Below are positions 33,680 through 53,527 of a stretch of DNA of 64,000 bases, in pieces. A program made the position numbers and the translations under genes. Every line of letters starts with the position of its first letter. Position 1 is the stretch's first letter. The stretch is taken from contig NC_052175.1 of NCBI RefSeq assembly GCF_902713615.1, forward strand, positions 9,713,271 to 9,777,270, read 5' to 3'. This DNA comes from Scyliorhinus canicula. Its lineage: Eukaryota. The notes below the pieces were generated by a model. It did no database searches, was not told where the DNA came from, and saw only the letters and a list, made by a program, of their open reading frames with translations.

Positions 33680-33870
33680 CGTGTCGGTGAAAACTGTGCC
33701 TCACCCCACCCCCATTTATCATGGACACTGGCGGTGAACTCTGTCCCTCATCTCCCCCCACCTTTTATAACGAACATTGTCGGTGAACTCTGTCTCTCAC
33801 CCCGCCCCCTTTATCAGAGACACTGTCGGTGAACTCTGTCGCTCATCACCCCTCCCACGTTCATCAGGGA
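33680..33870. repeat. ~42-bp minisatellite (ttatcagggacactgtcggtgaactctgtccctcacccc)
   Basis: About 4 units; the same unit occurs at 41790-42030 and 42940-43475. Confidence 0.85.
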
Positions 33871-33889
33871 CATTTTAGGTTCAGTCTGG

Positions 33890-34759
33890 CCTTCAACAGA
33901 TCTGCCAAAGAGTGAATCCTGTCCGGCTGCATCACAGTTTTGTGTGGCAACTGCTCGGCCCAAGATCGCAAGAAACTGCAAAGTGTGGTGAACTCAGCCA
34001 AACGCATCTTGCAAGCTTGCCTCCTGCACATTATTTATGTCTGCACCTCCCGCTTCCTCAGGAAGGCAGACAGCATTGACGGAGGCCCCTCACACCTAGA
34101 CTTTGCCTTCATCTTTTTGTTCATTCGGTTTGTTTTCACTGGAATGACGGGGGTTGAGGGGCGAACAGATGGAGGTCTACAAAAGTATGAGGGGCATAGA
34201 CAGAGTGGATACTCAGAGGTTTTTCCCCAGGTTAGAGGGGTCAATTACTAGGGGGAATAGGTTTAAGGTGCGAGGGGCAAGGTTTAAAGATGTGCGAGGC
34301 ACATTTTTTACACAGAGGGTGGGTGCCTGGAACTCGCTGCCAGAGGAGATGGTGGAAGAGGGGACGATAAAGACATTTGAGATACATCTGGACAAATACA
34401 TGAATAAGATGGGAATAGAGGGATACGCACCCAGGAAGAATAGAAGATTTTAGTTTAGTTGGGCAGGGAGGGCCGAAAGGCCTATTCCTCTGCTGTACCT
34501 TTTTTCGTTCTTTCTTTGATCTTTGTTCTAGACCTTTTAATCAGGCAGAATATACAGAGATCAGAAGATCCACACATCCAAACACAGGAGCAGCTTCATT
34601 CCCACAGCGGCAACACTCCTCAACGACGCTCCATCGGACTTCCCAAGAGCCGGTGCAGACTTGATGGGCCGAATGGCCTCCTTCTCCACTGTAAATTCTA
34701 CGACTGATCTTTTCCCTGTACGAACACTGTCCATGACTCCCTATGCTGCTCTTGCGCAT
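33890..34759 (+). mobile_element. Rex1/Babar-like LINE 3' region with an inserted CR1 tail (34135-34520); continues at 41280-41390
   Basis: ILSGCITV.CGNCSAQDRKKLQSVVNSAKRI...YVCTSRFLRKADSI is a Rex1-type RT C-terminus; the 3' UTR is split by the LTR element. Confidence 0.7.
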
Positions 34760-35354
34760 TGAAGTTAAAACTCACCACTATTATTAGAATTCCCCCATAC
34801 CAAAAAAAGGTCGATATTCTAAATGGTGAACAGGGATTCTCACTCCCTGACTCCAATGCAGGCTTCTGTGGGTGCTATTCAGGTCAAACTATCTTTTCAA
34901 GTTATCCCCCGGTATAACCCATACCTTCACCGAAGAATTTTACCTACTTACCCCTTAATAGCATTGATGTCCTGGGTCCTGCGTTATTAAGGAAGTGAAG
35001 TAAGCTAATAACCACTTTTTCAGGTTAAGTTATTTTTATTATTATATTTTTTCTTTTAAAAGCTGCAAACACTTTCTTTACAGAAAAAAAAGGTCTTGCT
35101 TCTGGCTGCTGCTGGTTGGTTGTACAGACTTTCAGGCCCACCTTGTCAATCAATTTTCTTAAAATCTGGTCTTCTGGAGTTGTATTCACTGATGAACTCG
35201 GTTGCTGTGTCCTGTCTTTCCCATGCACCGAGCTGTGAGAGCTGGCTCTGCTAGCTATCTCTAAGCTGACTCTGACTCCTGTATAAATTCTAGTCTTCCT
35301 TAGATGTATAACTGTTTAAACTCGGCTGCTTGCCTTGTCTTTCCCATGACCGAG

Positions 35355-35386
<32 letters not shown>

Positions 35387-36191
35387 TCTCCTCCCCTTCT
35401 CTCCTGTTGCTGTTGCTGTTGCTTCTGCTCCCTGGGTTTATATTCTCTTTCTAAGAGTTATTAAGTTTTAACGACTTTATTGTAAATGGGCTTGTTTCAC
35501 TTTGATAGTTTAAAAGTATCTTTGATGTAAACATTTTACGACAACTAATTATTCATTTTGGGCATATCGTCTCCTCTCAAATCTGATTTTAAAATGCTTT
35601 GGTTTCAATAGTTAACTCTTATTTCTGTGATTTCGAATCGTTTAATTTTCCAATTGTCCCCAGCTCATAACTTTGCCTTTGATTTTGACTTAAATGATGT
35701 TTCTCGTAGACAGGTCGTCTCCAATTTTCTTTTAATTGACTTGATGTTCGTAGAATTTTACACTTTAAAATTGACACCAAATTCGACTGGGCATCTTCCA
35801 TCCTTTCCAGCTGTTTACTAAGAGAGTTTATTTCAATTAAGGTGTGAAACTTTGCTTTTAGCTGTATGCTAAAATTTAACTTGGTTATGACTTGAAAGAC
35901 TTGCCTGTTTTAAACATTCGTCACTTAATGCAATTGAAACTCTCATCCATGCTTTTTCAGATGCTTCCTGAGATAGTTACATTCCATGAAGGTGTGAGCC
36001 ATTGTTTTAGCTTACCAGATGAAACCTATGTGTTTGCTAACCCTGCTTGTGATCAAGAATCTGCATTTTATAACCCTGCTCTTTGCAGCTGCTATTGACC
36101 TATTGTGGGATCTTTCCTTGTACCCTCTCAAACCAGATATTGCCAGACTTCCATGTTTCAAATGACACATTTTTCTGTATTTTCAAGAACA
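34760..36191 (-). repeat. 3' LTR (1432 bp)
   Basis: Minus strand TGTTCTTG...AACTTCA; TATAAA at 35442-35437; AATAAA at 35040-35035; internal (GA)n. Confidence 0.92.
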
Positions 36192-36218
36192 CCCCGTCTT
36201 GACATTTGAAACATAACT

Positions 36219-36460
36219 ATAGAACATAGAACATAGAACATAGAACAGTACAGCACAGAACAGGCCCTTCGGCCCTCAATGTTGTGCCGAGCAATGATCA
36301 CCCTACTCAAACCCACAAATCCACCCTATACCCGTAACCCAACAACCCCCCCCCCTTAACCTTACTTTTTAGGACACTATGGGCAATTTAGCATGGCCAA
36401 TCCACCTAACCCGCACATCTTTGGACTGTGGGAGGAAACCGGAGCACCCGGAGGAAACCC
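36219..36460 (-). mobile_element. 5'-truncated HE1-like SINE inserted next to the PPT
   Basis: Tail (atagaac)n and V-core only; head absent. Confidence 0.9.
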
Positions 36461-39400
36461 ATAATTTGGTTAATTGTCCCCCCCATCCAATTGTACTAAC
36501 ATGCATCCCCGATCTTTGTCATTTGTATGCATGTGTTGGAATTTCAATTTGTGCACCGAAATCAACACGTAAATGCAGCCATATCTCAGACCAGTGTCGA
36601 AAAGAGTCTTTTTTCCCTCAAGTCCAATTACCGTGGACCATAGCCGTTGTTGCTCAGGAAGGTAACATAATCGCTTTCCGTGTGTTCCACTACCTCCAAA
36701 GCATTTTACTTCCTTGGGATAGCAGCACCGTAGAAGCTTCCTCATGTCCCTTAGAAACAGCACACAACTCAGTCCATCAGTAACCACAAAGGTCTTTTGT
36801 CCATCACTGGCTGTTATGTGTCCCATTTTTCCGTCATCCAAATTGCTTTTCCATTTCTGATTGGAGTGGTAAATTATGATATCATGTACCACCCACTGAT
36901 TCCCTTGATTCATTAATTTAAAAGGTTCAATTGATATTGCTTGTATTCCTAACTTCCCCATTAATGTCTAACATTGTCGTGAACCATGTATGTCTGCCAA
37001 CCCCTGGTTTACATGAGAGAATATCTTTCTGACAAATTTCCTTCAAATCCCTTTCATCTGTCATCATTTCCCTTACACCATGAAAGTGTATATTTTCCAT
37101 TACAGCATTTGTAAAACCACATTGAACTGTCACTTTTCCAAATAAATTCTCCCTATTGTTAAATACATAGTAACAAAAATTAAGTCTTATCTTAACACAT
37201 TACTCATTACCTAACCACACAAATAGACTGTGTGGTACAAATTTACATATTTTCAACTGTTATCACAATTTTAATACTCGAAATAAAGTACAATATTGAA
37301 ACATCCCTTCTTGGCTTTGGGACCAATAGTCATTACATACTAAATATGGCATATAAACAACATCAATATTATTTGTAATGTTCTATGTAATTAAATCAAG
37401 AAAACACACTAAACTACCCCTCTATTAAAACATTCACACAGTTTAGAAATGCGGATCAAGTTGTTTAACGGCACACCTACCCCCCTTATCATATATATAT
37501 ATAACAGTCCCTATCAATTTACATGAAATGTCTTTCTTTAATAACGATTACAGCTCTTCAATGCAATATTGTTTTGCTGCATTGGTAACAATTTTCCCGC
37601 CGTGGTATCAAGCTACAAAAATTCTTAAATGATTGTCATTTATCATGTTGGGGTTCCTCGTCAGTCGCTGCTGTCTGCCGAGACCCTTAATACCTCCACC
37701 GTGTAGTACATACCCCATGGAGACCACAGATCATCCATCAGCTAATGTCCAGTTAGAGATGTCTGACTGGAGGTTTCACTGTCCAGTAATAATTTGATAT
37801 TTCGATTTGTTTCTAACCCGTAACGTTGTCCACCGGGCTCTTTCATTTAATTCCCTCAAATTTGTAGCCAATTGTATCATTAGTTTCCCCCCAATCCTGC
37901 AAAAAGATTCTTCTCTGGAGCGTAGTTCTCTTCCTTCTTGTGAACTGGTTTGTTATTTATCTGAAAAATCAAATGAACAGATCAAGGGTGGAGAGGGCCC
38001 TATTCTTTAATTTGTACTTTCTATTTTAATTTGGTTAACTCAGAAGTGCCCTCTCCAGGACTTCCTGATTTCGTTTGCCACCATTTCTTTTTGAACTGGT
38101 TTATTTTCCTTATCATTGATGTACATCATACAACTAAAGCCTGTTAAGCCTCCTCCTTCGTCATTGCACCCCTGAGTGAGATGCGAAGAATCTCAAACTC
38201 CTCCTCTTTTGCTCACCCTGTGATCCAATCTGGTCAAAACCTTACCCTGATACTTTCCTGATATTGCTACTATATTTAATTTAATTACTTTATTTTGATT
38301 ACGACCGGATTTTTATGAAAGTAAGATCCGAACATGACATTTTTACTTTATTATCTGTCCAATCAATGCTGCTAACAGGTTTTAATTCACTGTCTTCCCA
38401 CCAATTGGATCATGTGTTTTAATTGTGATACAATTTATTTTGCTCCAGACACCATGCTTCTCTAATTCAACTGTATGTGTCCCCAGAATCTGAATGATCT
38501 TATCTTTACATTTTACAGCTTCACTGATTATTTTCCTGCAGTTTTAGTTGGTAGCTTCACCCAAATTTCCTCTATTATCAATTGGTTTTAATATCTTAAT
38601 TTTCTAAAGCTCCTTCTTCAATGTATTTAACATTCTAAACATCATTATTTCTGCTCGTGACTATGTGATCATCAGGCACTAGGACCCTGCGGAGCCATGC
38701 AGTGTCAATTTCAATGCAGCAATTTCAAAGTCTGCAGCAGCTGACTGCTGCCCAGCACAAACTCTTTATCTGTTTATTCTGAGACCAATTTAGTTCTGAA
38801 CATACTGATTTACTGATAATACTGATCACATTTCTTCCTGCCATTTATAACTTCCAATTCATGTGAAAATCGGCTTTACAAAATACAACATTTTTTTTAA
38901 ATACAAACATTAAAGGAAATTCACAATTCCTTATTAGACATACACACACTCATTCATCCACTCAGATCTTGGATCTTTACTCTGCAGGATTTCACAAATC
39001 CTTATTAAACACACATTTATCCACTGAGATCTTGGACCTCTATTCTGTAGGGTTTTAGTTACTCTTAATAAAATTTGAGACCCCTCCCTGCGTGTAAGTT
39101 TCACTTCTGCAGGAGTTTTTTTTGCCTCTTAAGCTTTTCCACTCTTGTTTCATTGTTTCAACTCTCTAGACCATGTTTCAGAGCAAGAGGATTATTCTCA
39201 TTGCCATTTTTCTGAATTCAACTTCTGTTCCTGGTTGCCCCTTTCAGGTGCACTCTGAAATTAAGGATAAGTACCATTTCTGGGCCCTATCCAAGGCTGA
39301 ATAAGGCACTATCTTCCTGTTTTAGTTAAGGGTCGATTGGTTATTGGTTTCTGAAGATTCTAAGCGTCCCTATTTTCCAGAAAATGTCCGCACAATCTGC

Positions 39401-39637
39401 TTTACTCTGAGGATGATTTATTCTTTGGCCTCTTTTACCAGTAACGGATGCAAGATTTTAGTGCTATCACCAAAATGTCTTGCAGACTTTTTCTCAGGGT
39501 CATTATCTTCTAGTCTACTGATTTTCACACCCAACCTGAGCTTCAGTCCCCTCGATCCACAGAATATCCTTACAAAAGCCAATCACACATGACTTTCCAG
39601 ACTAAACTCGGCAGGTAAAGTCTGACTCACACATGGA

Positions 39638-39833
39638 CTAGAAACTTCTAATATTCTAGCCTTTGTGCCGGTTAGAAACTTCTAATATTCCAACCGTTTC
39701 TTGGGAACTAGAAACTTCTAATATTCTAGCCCCTACTCTGCTTAACTAGACACTTCTAATATTCTAGCCTCGCTTTACCTAGAAACTTCTAATATTCTAG
39801 GTTCACTTTACCTAGAAACTTCTAATATTCTAG
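39638..39833 (-). repeat. Array of six 22-bp hairpin repeats with unique 11-16 bp spacers in the LTR-element leader
   Basis: Plus-strand CTAGAAACTTCTAATATTCTAG at 39638, 39672 (variant), 39708, 39746, 39779 and 39812; spacers are 12, 14, 16, 11 and 11 bp. Confidence 0.95.
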
Positions 39834-39834
39834 G

Positions 39835-39852
39835 CCTCCACGCTGGGCGCCA
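39835..39852 (-). promoter_or_regulatory. Primer-binding site, tRNA-Lys(CUU) type
   Basis: TGGCGCCCAGCGTGGAGG immediately follows the 5' LTR; 15/18 match to the Lys1,2 PBS TGGCGCCCAACGTGGGGC. Confidence 0.85.
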
Positions 39853-41279
39853 TGAAGTTAAAACTCACCACTATTCTTAGAATTCCCCCTATACCAAAAA
39901 AAGGTCGATATTCTAAATGGTGAACAGGGATTCTCACTCCCTGACTCCAATGCAGGCTTCTGTGGGTGCTATTCAGGTCAAACTATCTTTTCAAGTTATC
40001 CCCCGGTATAACCCATACCTTCACCGAATAATTTTACCTACTTACCCCTTAATAGCATTGATGTCCTGGGTCCTGCGTTATTAAGGAAGTGAAGTAAGCT
40101 AATAACCACTTTTTCAGGTTAAGTTATTTTTATTATTATATTTTTTCTTTTAAAAGCTTCAAACACTTTCATTACAGAAAGGAAAAGAGATCTTGCTTCT
40201 GGCTGCTGCTGGTTGGTTGTACAGACCTTCAGGCCCACCTTGTCAATCAATTTCTTAAAATCTGGTCTTCTGGAGTTGTATTCACTGATGAACTCGGTTG
40301 CTGTTTCCTGTCTTTCCCATGCACCGAGCTGTGAGAGCTGGCTCTGCTAGCTATCTCTAAGCTGACTCTGACTCCTGTATAAATTCTAGTCTTCCTTAGA
40401 TGTATAACTGTTTAAACTCGGCTGCTGGCCTTGTCTTTCCCATGACCGAGCCATCTCTCTCTCTCTCTCTGAGTTCTCCTCCCCTTCTCTCCTGTTGCTG
40501 TTGCTGTTGCTTCTGCTCCCTGGGTTTATATTCTCTTTCTAAGAGTTATTAAGTTTTAACGACTTTATTGTAAATGGGCTTGTTTCACTTTGATAGTTTA
40601 AAAGTATCTTTGATGTAAACATTTTACTACAACTAATTATTAATTTTGGGCATATCGTCTCCTCTCAGATCTGATTAAAAAATGCTTTGGTTTCAATAGT
40701 TAACTTTTATTTCTTTGATTTCGAATCGTTTAATTTTCCAATTGTCCCCAGCTCATAACTTTGCCTTTGATTTTGACTTAAATGATGGTTCTCGTAGACA
40801 GGTCGTCTCCAATTTTCTTTTAATTGAATTGATGTTCGTAGAATTTTACACTTTAAAATTGACACCAAATTCGACTGGGCTTCTTCCATTCTTTCCAGCT
40901 GTTTACTAAGAGAGTTTATTTCAATTAAGGTGTGAAACTTTGCTTTTAGCTGTATGCTAAAATTTAACTTGGTTATGACTTGAAATATTTGCCTGTTTTA
41001 AACATTCGTCACTTAATGCAATTGAAACTCTCATACATGCTTTTTCAGATGCTTCCTGAGATAGTTACATTCCATGAAGGTGTGAGCCATTGTTTTAGCT
41101 TACCACATGAAACCTATGTGTTTGCTAAACCTGCTTGTGATCAAGAATCTGCATTTTATAACCCTGCTCTTTGCAGCTGCTATTAACCTATTGTGGGATC
41201 TTTCCTTGTACCCTCTCAAACCAGATATTGCCAGACTTCCATGTTTCAAATGACACATTTTTCTGTATTTTCAAGAACA
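39853..41279 (-). repeat. 5' LTR (1427 bp)
   Basis: Colinear with the 3' LTR, differing by scattered substitutions and (CT)n length; TATAAA at 40530-40525. Confidence 0.92.
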
Positions 41280-41394
41280 GCATGTATTTGCTTAGTTTGG
41301 CCCTTTGTTCCACGCTGTAACTATTACTATGTTTTGATGTACATTTGGCAATGAGCTCTGTCGATTATTCTTTTGTCCACGGACTTGCTTGACG

Positions 41395-41705: not shown

Positions 41706-41789
41706 CCAACAGTCAGGTAGAAAAATGCGCTTTGCTGTACACCGGCACATGTGACAATACACACAAATCAATCCATCGTTTCTCTCCCC

Positions 41790-42030
41790 TCGCCGTATAT
41801 CAGGGACACTGTCGGTGAACTCTGCCCGTCAATCCCCCCCCCATCCCTCCGTTTATAAGGGACACTCTCGGTGAACTCTATCTCTCACACCCCCTCCCAC
41901 CCCCGCCCACTCCCATTTATGGGGGACACTACCTGTGAACTCTGTCCCTCACACCCACCGCTCCGTATATCAGGGACACTGCCGGTGAGTTGTGTCCCTC
42001 ACCCACCTCTCCCAACACCGTTTATCAGGG
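41790..42030. repeat. ~42-bp minisatellite
   Basis: gggacactgtcggtgaactctg units. Confidence 0.85.
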
Positions 42031-42845: not shown

Positions 42846-42939
42846 TTCGGGTAGAAAAAAACTTTTTGTTGTACATTTGTACATGTGACAGTAAATATTA
42901 ATTTATCAATCATGTCTACTTCCTCGTTGTTTATCAGTG

Positions 42940-43475
42940 AAACTGTCGGTGAACATTGTCCCTCAACCCCCCACCCCCCGCCTAAACCGATTTATCTGGG
43001 AGACCGTCAGCGAACTCGGTCCCTCACCCCCACACCTCGCTTATCTCGGACGTCGGTGAATTCTGTCCCTCACACCCCCAGCCGTTTATCAGGGACACTG
43101 TCGCTGAACTCTGTCCCTCATACCCACCCCCTCCCTGAGGTTTATCAGGGACACTGTCGGTGAACTCTGTCCCTCATCGCTGCATCTCCCCCTCCCCGAT
43201 ATTAGGGACAGAGACTGTGAACTCCTTTCCTCATCCAACCTCCACCGCCGCTCATCAGCGAACCTGTCGGTGAACTGGGCGCCTCATTCCGCCGCCAGTC
43301 CCCGCCGCTTATCAGGGGCACTGTGGGCGAGCTCTGTCCCTCATGCCGTCCCCGAAACCCCGTTGATCAGGGTCACTGTCAGTGAACGCTGTCCCTCCAG
43401 TCCCAGCCTCGATTATCAGGGACAGAGTCGGTTAACGCTGCCCCTCATCCCCCCACCCCACACACACCATTTATC
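42940..43475. repeat. ~42-bp minisatellite (over 10 units)
   Basis: ttatcagggacactgtcggtgaactctgtccctca units. Confidence 0.9.
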
Positions 43476-51632: not shown

Positions 51633-53527
51633 CAGCTTTGACAAAGAGTCATCGGACTCGAAACGTTAGCTCTTTTCTCTCCCGACAGATGCTGCCAGAC
51701 TTGCTGAAATTGTCCAGCATATTCCCTTTCGAAACAGATTCCAACATCCGCAGTAATTTGCTTTTATCATGATGTAAGAGGACCGCTTAAATTGATTGAG
51801 GAAAATTTGGTGTGAGCAGTCAGAACTTGCTTTATTGGATTTCGTGTCAAATTTTAGGGAACAATTAAATAGAGCTGGGGAATTGGCTGGACAACATTTA
51901 ATAGTTGCACAAAATGTGATGAAACAGTAGCCAAAGAAAGCAAAAGTTCGTAGTTTTGCCTGTGGAGTTAAAGTTTTAGTGTTGTAACCAATGGTTGATG
52001 AACCTTTAAAAGTAATGTTTTGTGGACCTTATCAGACTGGCAGAAGGTCAAGTGAGGTGAATAACGTGGTAAGAACGCCAGATAGAAGGAAAACTAACTG
52101 AGTGTGTCATGTGAACATGCCGAAAAGGTATTTTGAAAGGGAAGGAGAGCAAAAGGATTAGATTCTATTTATTTTAACTCAAAGTAAAGAACCAAATCCA
52201 GATGACTGTGAATTTGACATTCCTCAAATTCAATTGGAAACCGGGGACGTTCTTTAAAAAATGGATATATTGTTGAGTTCCTTCCAGAGGAAAAACGAAC
52301 TGACCTGAAAGTGTTATTGATATCGTATGGGGAAGTTCTCGAAAGTTGGGAAGGACGAAAATGGCTGTACATAATGTCGATGTGGGAAATGCTCTTCCAA
52401 ATAAACAGCATTCATATAGACTTAACCCTTTAAAATTGGCACAGGTTAACAGAGAGATTAAGAGTATACTTAAATATGGCATAATTGAAGTGTGTTGCAG
52501 CCAACCAAACTAACTCTTAGTGATGGTACCGAATCCAGACGGTACCCAACGTTTGTGTGCGGACTTTAGAAAGGTTAATGCAGTTACAAGAACGGACTCT
52601 TATCCCATCCCACGTTTGTTGGATTGCATTGAGAAGGTGGGACAACCAGCTTTTATTTCCAAACGGGATTTACTTAAATGTCACTGACCTTTATCCGAAA
52701 GGGCGAAGGAGATTTCAGCTTTTGTGACTCCAGATGGTACAGACCAATTCAAAGTTATGCCATTTGGCATGAAAAACGCCCCAGTCCCATTTTAACGGTT
52801 AACTAAAACAATTGTTACAGGATTACCCAATTGTGCGCTGTCCATCGACGATCTGGTAGTTTTCAGTCAGCCATGGAAAGAACATTTAAAGCATCAGGTG
52901 GAGATATTCGATTGACTTCAGGAGGCATGTTTGCTGGTAAACCTAGCCAAAAGTGAATTTGGTAAAGTCCAAGACACTTTCCTTGGCCACTAAATCGAAC
53001 AGTATGGCATTGTCCCACGGGTTGCGAAAACAAAATGTATTGGCGAGTTTACAGTGCCTTCGACACAAAGGGAAAAAATGCGATTTCTTGGCATGAGTGG
53101 ATTTTACCCGAAATTTGTGCCGAACTTTAGCAGCGTGGCTGCTCGATTGACGGACTTGCTGAAGAAACGCTGCAGATTTTACTGGGCAGCGAAGTGTCAA
53201 CAGCCATTTGGCTGACATAAGGCTCTGATCGGATTGAACGAAAGTATCTGACTTTAAAGAAAAATGCCGGGGAGTAGAGAAATGGATGGATCGTACAGGT
53301 TTCTCTTGTTCAAAGAGAATGTAAATCAAGAGCGATTCATTTTGGCTGATATAGGACTAAATTGGATTATGTCCTTATAAATGTTTGCATGTTTTGTTTT
53401 ATTTAAAAAGTATAATCAGTCAATATTTCTTGACGGAAAGTGAAAAGGTGAAAAATAAAACCATCTTGAAGTTGATGGTTTATTTATTTTTTCTTGGGTG
53501 GAGTTGTCAAGTGCATGTACCTTTCAG

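Follow-up and report, generated by a model that had tools for sequence, protein, structure and literature searches.

Among the closest described counterparts of the locus analysed here are the leaders of foamy viruses. The leader of the prototype foamy virus contains CAS-I, a structured cis element that lies between the primer-binding site (PBS) and gag and includes a CUAG-containing inverted repeat (PMC5035957, PMC5874298). It comprises one 10-nt palindrome and three unlike dimer sites, SI-SIII. According to the same sources, the leader palindrome has a role in dimerisation and none in packaging, nucleic-acid binding by the Gag tail shows no known specificity, and a region in pol is an additional requirement for packaging; a review names as an unanswered question how a foamy-type Gag without zinc knuckles chooses its RNA (PMC5035957). 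In MLV, psi includes two fixed tandem leader hairpins, SL-C and SL-D, which present the same GACG loop on different stems, are read by a zinc-knuckle nucleocapsid and serve both dimerisation and packaging (PMC5874298). Foamy-like endogenous retroviruses (ERVs) of fish have been described as having a Lys PBS, a GGG-TG junction, a 4-bp target duplication and a Gag without a Cys-His box (PMC5210030), together with a Gly/Arg-rich Gag end and a Pol nearest to that of foamy virus (PMC5210030, PMC5512871); the word 'hairpin' is absent from the main text of both of these papers.

We analysed a stretch of 64,000 nt from the shark Scyliorhinus canicula (hereafter the window), in which an LTR element on the minus strand carries six copies of a 22-nt repeat directly after its PBS. 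As in CAS-I, the repeats lie between the PBS and gag, but where the prototype foamy virus has a single palindrome and unlike sites, the shark family has 2-11 like hairpins with a non-palindromic 10-nt loop; compared with MLV, the number of hairpins varies, the loop is longer at 10 nt, and the Gag lacks a knuckle. A repeat region located in the 5′ leader is also present in ZFERV, another fish endogenous retrovirus. That block is a tandem array of 517 bp with 9 direct repeats, but ZFERV belongs to another lineage, has an env gene and longer units, and the available parts of its description mention no hairpin covariation (PMC3382231). A literature search, which did not extend to repeat libraries such as Dfam or Repbase, brought up no account of an array like this one in foamy-like elements. 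The patterns reported below indicate that the array is a real, structurally selected feature.

The array and the element that carries it

A six-unit repeat array had been proposed at this locus from the sequence alone, and it proved real: it occupies 39638-39833 on the minus strand and adjoins the PBS at 39834-39852. In element order the units are A (39812-39833), B (39779-39800), C (39746-39767), D (39708-39729), E (39672-39693) and F (39638-39659), with gaps of 11, 11, 16, 14 and 12 nt between them; four of the six are exact 22-mers. The exact 22-mer has 1,773 copies in the genome versus 0 for a reversed-pattern control, and the array region folds with z = -5.7, with none of 200 shuffles equally stable, which shows that the array is not due to chance. 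The PBS is a variant of the site for tRNA-Lys(CTT), with one substitution and one extra base, and its last two bases form the bottom of the 5′ arm of unit A. Its earlier assignment to Lys is upheld by a search with the complement of the canonical PBS, which gave 56 genome matches; two of the three that were checked are tRNA-Lys(CTT) genes.

The sequence-only reading held that flanking bases extend the hairpin stem in two copies. The extension is real, but it is present in all six units. In single-unit folds, five units form stems of 8-10 bp: specifically, A and B have 8-bp stems that include the flanks and share the same 3′ arm, D has a 10-bp stem with two G-U pairs, E has 9 bp, and F has 8 bp in the window copy and 9 bp in most relatives. 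The stem ends of unit E are compensated (TTGG..CTAA in place of CTAG..CTAG), a C-G pair having become U-A, in addition to a change of A-U to G-U. Unit C carries one substitution in its top, which recurs in the family only in a twin locus, and when folded alone this mutated unit adopts a rearranged fold. As the flanks of all six units take part in the stem, most of what had been called 'spacers' is lower stem specific to a unit, with short purine-rich linkers making up the rest. Their description as mostly unique was too strong for the first two, which share their 5′ half.

Palindromic repeats with intervening spacers give the array the looks of a CRISPR array, and the likeness ends there, as the sequence-only reading had also concluded. 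The spacers are 11-16 nt long, are common to family copies (recurring in up to 77 loci), pair as stems and are not acquired, and they belong to a eukaryotic retroelement. An Rfam scan of the element returned one weak match (E 2.9) and none on the array, nothing notable for CRISPR or otherwise.

The rest of the element is that of a deleted LTR retroelement, with all of the following features on the minus strand. The 5′ LTR (39853-41279; 1,427 bp, TG...CA) adjoins the PBS and contains a TATA-like motif at 40525-40530 and an AATAAA at 40129-40134, which may serve as promoter and poly(A) signals, respectively. It pairs with the 3′ LTR at 34760-36191 (97% identity over 1,442 columns), which is preceded by a short polypurine tract, recognised by its sequence, that ends in a GGG-TG junction with the LTR (36192-36200). 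A 4-bp target-site duplication, ATGC, flanks the element, with its left copy at 41280-41283 and its right copy at 34756-34759. What is left of gag-pol is a decayed remnant of the 5′ end of gag (39064-39286, with an ATG at 39207; tblastn E 8e-13, the long ORF of relative L041 being the query) and a remnant of the 3′ end of the integrase (38388-38587; tblastn E 7e-22). The coding region is otherwise deleted and no long open frame is left; none of nine short frames of the element scored above the Pfam cut-off. A later insertion at 36219-36465 (boundaries approximate) is a dispersed short repeat with a 7-nt tandem tail and many matches in the window, and is SINE-like.

Several observations concern the surroundings. 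A twin of the window copy, at 9.40 Mb and 350 kb away, is 100% alike over the array and the internal region, and is either a segmental duplication or an assembly duplicate. A contig from a sequencing run filed under a second organism label matches the 3′ part of the array (39542-39726) with one difference. Contigs from runs that are presumably of RNA also span the leader, although contigs by their nature do not reveal transcription. On either side of the element there is a minisatellite-like dispersed repeat of 46-57 bp (33682-33907, 41778-42013 and 42912-43459), and a distant reverse-transcriptase (RT) match with 25% identity at 52319-53248 belongs to another retroelement.

The host family

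Relatives of the window element are longer by ~5 kb and often have one frame of 1,549-1,865 aa with RT, tether, second RNase H and integrase domains (RT_RNaseH at 1187-1315, RNase_H at 1344-1486). The best PDB matches of their Pol, a measure of similarity only, are foamy virus Pol (E 6e-81), then Ty3 (2e-41) and MLV (2e-28). Their Gag has no CCHC knuckle, ends in a tail that is 51% Gly+Arg and has a YxLR motif at residue 689. With its Lys PBS, GGG-TG junction, 4-bp target duplication and Gag without a Cys-His box, the family shows the features listed for the fish foamy-like ERVs, and these similarities identify the host element as a foamy-like endogenous retroelement. Despite them, the shark family differs from the fish elements in that gag and pol are in a single frame and in that no env was seen in the sampled copies (10-kb stretches examined). 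In these copies the ~1.4-1.7 kb before the 3′ LTR contain no recognised gene, and in the sampled coding copies there is no accessory frame of at least 150 aa. A foamy virus proper (Spumaretrovirinae) was rejected on the grounds that no env or accessory genes were seen and Pol is not in a separate frame. Lokiretrovirus has been described with an Env related to the paramyxovirus fusion protein and an RT that is sister to those of all retroviruses (PMC7947760); the sampled copies of the shark family offer no env for comparison, and their Pol leans to the foamy side in a similarity search, which is not a tree.

The family is young: its RT is 96-100% alike at 150 or more genome places, and LTR-pair identity is high, with medians of 99.6% for coding copies (n=27) versus 98.2% for non-coding copies (n=41). 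Within this young, foamy-virus-related family, the window element is a member that has suffered deletions. Searches for more distant relatives returned little. The Gag region had no homologue at E 0.001 among 7,980 candidates, viral contigs contained no exact copy of the 22-mer, and the metagenome contigs searched for foamy-like relatives yielded a single weak locus that lacks a leader. Two protein searches of the shark's own genome gave no other family among their 150 and 41 best places, respectively.

Two further features of the family were seen. Of 30 copies whose protease motif can be read, 10 have an in-frame TGA at one common position, immediately behind the Gly/Arg-rich tail of Gag. These copies include L044, L061, L072, L085, L120 and L129, and the stop is common to several sublineages; most of the other copies with a readable motif read through the gag/pol boundary in one frame. 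The TGA may be a programmed read-through stop rather than the result of decay. In addition, L070 and L071 are tandem elements with a common middle LTR.

Covariation and strand asymmetry in the stems

We examined a family sample of 117 loci. An unbiased part of it consists of 66 of the 72 loci with a perfect PBS, while the remainder were partly chosen via the repeat itself; 8 of the loci L001-L030 were left out as duplicates of later loci. Arrays were present in 115 of the 117 loci, yielding 117 arrays and 641 units, with 2-11 units in each array. As 64 of the 66 loci picked by PBS alone carry an array, it is not private to the window copy, and its presence in a PBS-adjoining leader position bears out the idea of a repeated RNA hairpin module in the place of retroviral packaging and dimer signals.

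The 16-nt top of the hairpin is invariant between unit types, and the five pairs below this core are 96-99% paired over the 641 units; the two informative positions among them are paired at frequencies of 0.98 and 0.96 versus 0.85 and 0.58 after arm shuffling. Covariation was examined in a set of 20 unit types, each found in at least two loci. Three pairs vary on both sides in this set (C-G/U-A; C-G/G-C/G-U; A-U/C-G/G-C). None of 500 shuffles attained the observed covariation score or the observed proportion of paired cells. For the number of pairs and the number of pair types, the data did no better than shuffles, of which 196 and 93 of 500, respectively, reached the observed values. When the arms of the five commonest unit types were permuted, 2 of 120 arrangements paired as well. 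All of this covariation comes from ~5 paralogous unit types of one family and hence from few independent events, and own-genome protein searches and metagenome searches for a distant family with a different loop, which would allow deeper covariation analysis, found none. Within this one family, the pattern indicates that the stem-loops are supported by covariation. The earlier view that the array is not simple slippage of one unit is upheld.

The covariation is asymmetric between the strands. At stem positions 4-5, G-U pairs account for 48% and 66%, and A-C pairs, which would speak for the opposite strand, for 0%. Antisense folds were less stable than sense folds in all eight copies compared. 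These patterns point to stems that act as sense-strand RNA, and they bear directly on a DNA-level alternative. Some repeat-spacer arrays of retrotransposon leaders work at the DNA level, the Su(Hw) array of gypsy being an example, and the shark array could be a row of transcription-factor or insulator sites, or of heat-shock elements; its core does contain a two-pentamer GAA..TTC dyad in five of the six window units. However, the flank complementarity depends on G-U pairs, which would be mispaired in DNA and likewise on the opposite strand, and the strand-specific G-U pattern largely refutes a DNA element, leaving it most improbable. A heat-shock element array was rejected separately, the window copy having 0 triples of alternating nGAAn pentamers.

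A different role, that of several dimer-linkage sites, would have two genomes joined as in foamy SII, either through the AAUAUU palindrome that tops the stem or by arms exchanging strands. The array and foamy SI-SIII occupy corresponding positions (PMC5035957), the core of foamy SII is CUAG, given as UCCUAGGA (PMC5874298), AAUAUU is both invariant and self-complementary, and extended homoduplexes are predicted to be possible for single units. The sequence-only reading had placed the dimer signal in the CUAG palindromes. This is not supported, since CUAG is base-paired within the stem and varies between units: of the 641 units, the 78 of the fifth unit type (unit E) have another sequence in its place, and two further multi-copy variants, with 25 and 33 units, carry it in altered form. 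The AAUAUU palindrome is all A-U and, with two bases in the stem, lies only partly in the loop. The 10-nt loop itself is not palindromic, so that no self-complementary loop is exposed, and the predicted gain from dimerisation is constant at -6.6 kcal/mol for 2-11 units, in a model that does not cover kissing loops. Together, these points make dimer linkage an unlikely role.

Folding of whole arrays suggests what the differences between lower stems may be for. In the window copy, units A and B, which have the same 3′ arm, pair with each other, with local probabilities of only 0.01 and 0.07, whereas units D, E and F, which have lower stems of their own, fold locally at 0.98; distinct stems would thus help local folding. 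More generally, cross-pairing of neighbours is possible in whole-array folds between units with the same 3′ arm. Three of the eight copies tested (L049, L058 and L132) fold poorly as whole arrays, and in L041 and L094 most units reach only ~0.3-0.6 local pairing. Arms are matched in 596 of 629 classifiable units, the other 12 of the 641 being left out as unclassifiable. Mismatched arms occur in 17 units at 10 loci of one young multi-copy lineage, and another shared variant, at 8 loci, breaks one pair.

Among 33 close copies, changes show no preference for loop, stem or linker (chi-square p=0.38). The sequence-only reading had taken such equal neutral divergence as a point against function, and the even spread is indeed what is found, but the comparison is not the right test and reflects decay after insertion. 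Single copies decay neutrally once inserted, as expected, and the selective signal lies in the differences between unit types. As a separate observation, an A-to-C change at position 11 of the 16-nt core, the commonest core change, has recurred 9 times in different units and subfamilies.

Array retention, unit number and the candidate ligand

The PBS 20-mer has 72 perfect matches among 323 looser ones in the genome, and directly before the first unit the PBS is variant in 42 and canonical in 30 of the 117 arrays. Most copies thus have the variant, both forms are found with the same array types, and we found no variant tRNA that matches the common variant PBS. The array itself is kept even where almost the whole of gag-pol has gone: such short non-coding copies have 4-6 units, and there is only one clean array-less deletion copy, at a single locus (n=1). 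This retention is more compatible with a cis-acting signal for the RNA than with one that controls how Gag is translated.

The array had also been proposed as the device of a non-coding parasite that multiplies psi to compete for a helper's capsid. Unit counts contradict this: the median is 6 in RT-bearing copies (range 2-11, n=37), 7 in copies with an open frame of at least 1,500 aa (n=16) and 5 in short non-coding copies (range 4-6, n=41), the copies being related and p-values for this comparison therefore not independent. Coding copies carry equal or greater numbers of units, and the array is a trait of the family, not a parasite's device. A large number of units is not required, since some coding copies have two or three. 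Among the 25 of 37 RT-bearing copies with an LTR match of at least 400 nt, unit number correlates with LTR identity (rho 0.56), the youngest coding copies carrying the most units, in a comparison that is confounded by lineage.

The junctions at which units were gained or lost are also informative. By hand tally, rearrangement junctions found in two or more loci fall in the linker in 8 cases and in the identical core in 1, whereas those found in a single locus fall ~6 times in the linker and ~11 times in the core (Fisher p 0.014, post hoc and with small numbers). Five apparent chimeras that arise from point changes (L095, L115, L121, L135 and one unit of L060) were left out of this tally. Homology alone would favour junctions in the core. 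Either whole-hairpin variants spread better, or RT switches templates at hairpin bases; polymerase pausing and template switching there could explain linker junctions without selection (PMC3187697). Both readings require the hairpins to form in RNA.

If RT slippage beside the PBS had simply amplified one functional hairpin, the extra units would be idle. Unit number does vary freely from 2 to 11, mismatched units occur in a successful lineage, and the linkers resemble the 3′ half of the PBS, so that the unit probably arose there by duplication. Against idle units, each unit type has its own compensated lower stem below a fixed top, which requires selection on each unit after duplication; no copy among the 117 loci has a single unit, and direct repeats, of which longer ones have been studied, tend to be lost in reverse transcription (PMC3187697). 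On balance, neutral amplification is improbable.

An invariant top on exchangeable, repeated stems, a position between PBS and gag, and retention in non-coding copies are together what one would expect of an RNA signal that acts in cis and offers protein several binding sites. Two features of psi are present, namely location in the genomic RNA between PBS and gag and retention by non-coding copies, and the position matches that of foamy CAS-I and of other retroviral psi regions (PMC5035957, PMC5874298). We propose, with confidence and doubt in about equal measure, that the array is a multivalent landing pad by which the element's Gag selects and packages its RNA. Specifically, the leader of the genomic RNA would present 2-11 predicted hairpins, each with the fixed 16-nt top on its own co-varying lower stem. 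The distinct lower stems may keep each hairpin folding locally and not with its neighbour, units would be gained and lost through template switching during reverse transcription, and whole-hairpin variants would presumably spread better. The candidate ligand is the element's Gag, which is without a zinc knuckle, and the candidate step is packaging; as a prediction from these sequence patterns, the element's own Gag acting in packaging is the likeliest ligand, at roughly even chances.

Other ligands have been weighed. The constitutive transport element provides the comparison for export of unspliced RNA by a host protein. A host RNA-binding protein could act on the array in export, in stability or in translation, because an invariant exposed loop on exchangeable stems suits any sequence-specific protein, and the missing accessory frame in the sampled coding copies implies that export proceeds via host factors or Gag. 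However, a PBS-adjoining position is typical of packaging and dimer signals, and retention in non-coding copies counts against translation control, although not against export; we regard a host ligand as possible but doubtful. The array RNA could also serve Pol as a scaffold, given that activation of the foamy protease takes place on an RNA structure rich in purines (PMC5035957), that the loop here is purine-rich and that unit A adjoins the tRNA helix. The foamy structure (PARM) sits in pol, not in the leader, and this role seems very improbable.

Under the Gag landing pad, the 16-nt hairpin top is a candidate recognition motif for foamy-type Gag, and the 2-11 repeats on exchangeable stems form a natural dose series in which binding could be measured on short RNA fragments. 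The array would further be a case of a cis signal whose copy number varies amid ongoing retroelement expansion. A bolder and rather unlikely version makes the array an accordion-like avidity dial: germ-line copies would compete for shared capsids by gaining Gag-binding hairpins, the lower stems would act as addresses against misfolding, and the 16-nt top would be the first defined RNA ligand for a knuckle-less foamy-type Gag. If the role is not packaging, the array would still be a clear selected RNA structure in a fish-type foamy-like leader.

Two observations on non-coding copies stand apart from the array itself. Many of these copies keep the same short 3′ remnant of the integrase, ~3% of the long frame, which makes it a candidate for a second cis signal, by analogy with foamy CAS-II or a central polypurine tract. 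Finally, one non-coding subfamily, represented by L042, L055, L057, L081 and ~25 similar loci, has two PBSs in the order LTR, perfect PBS, ~45 nt of other sequence, and a decayed PBS fused to the array; it looks like a leader that was captured behind a new LTR.
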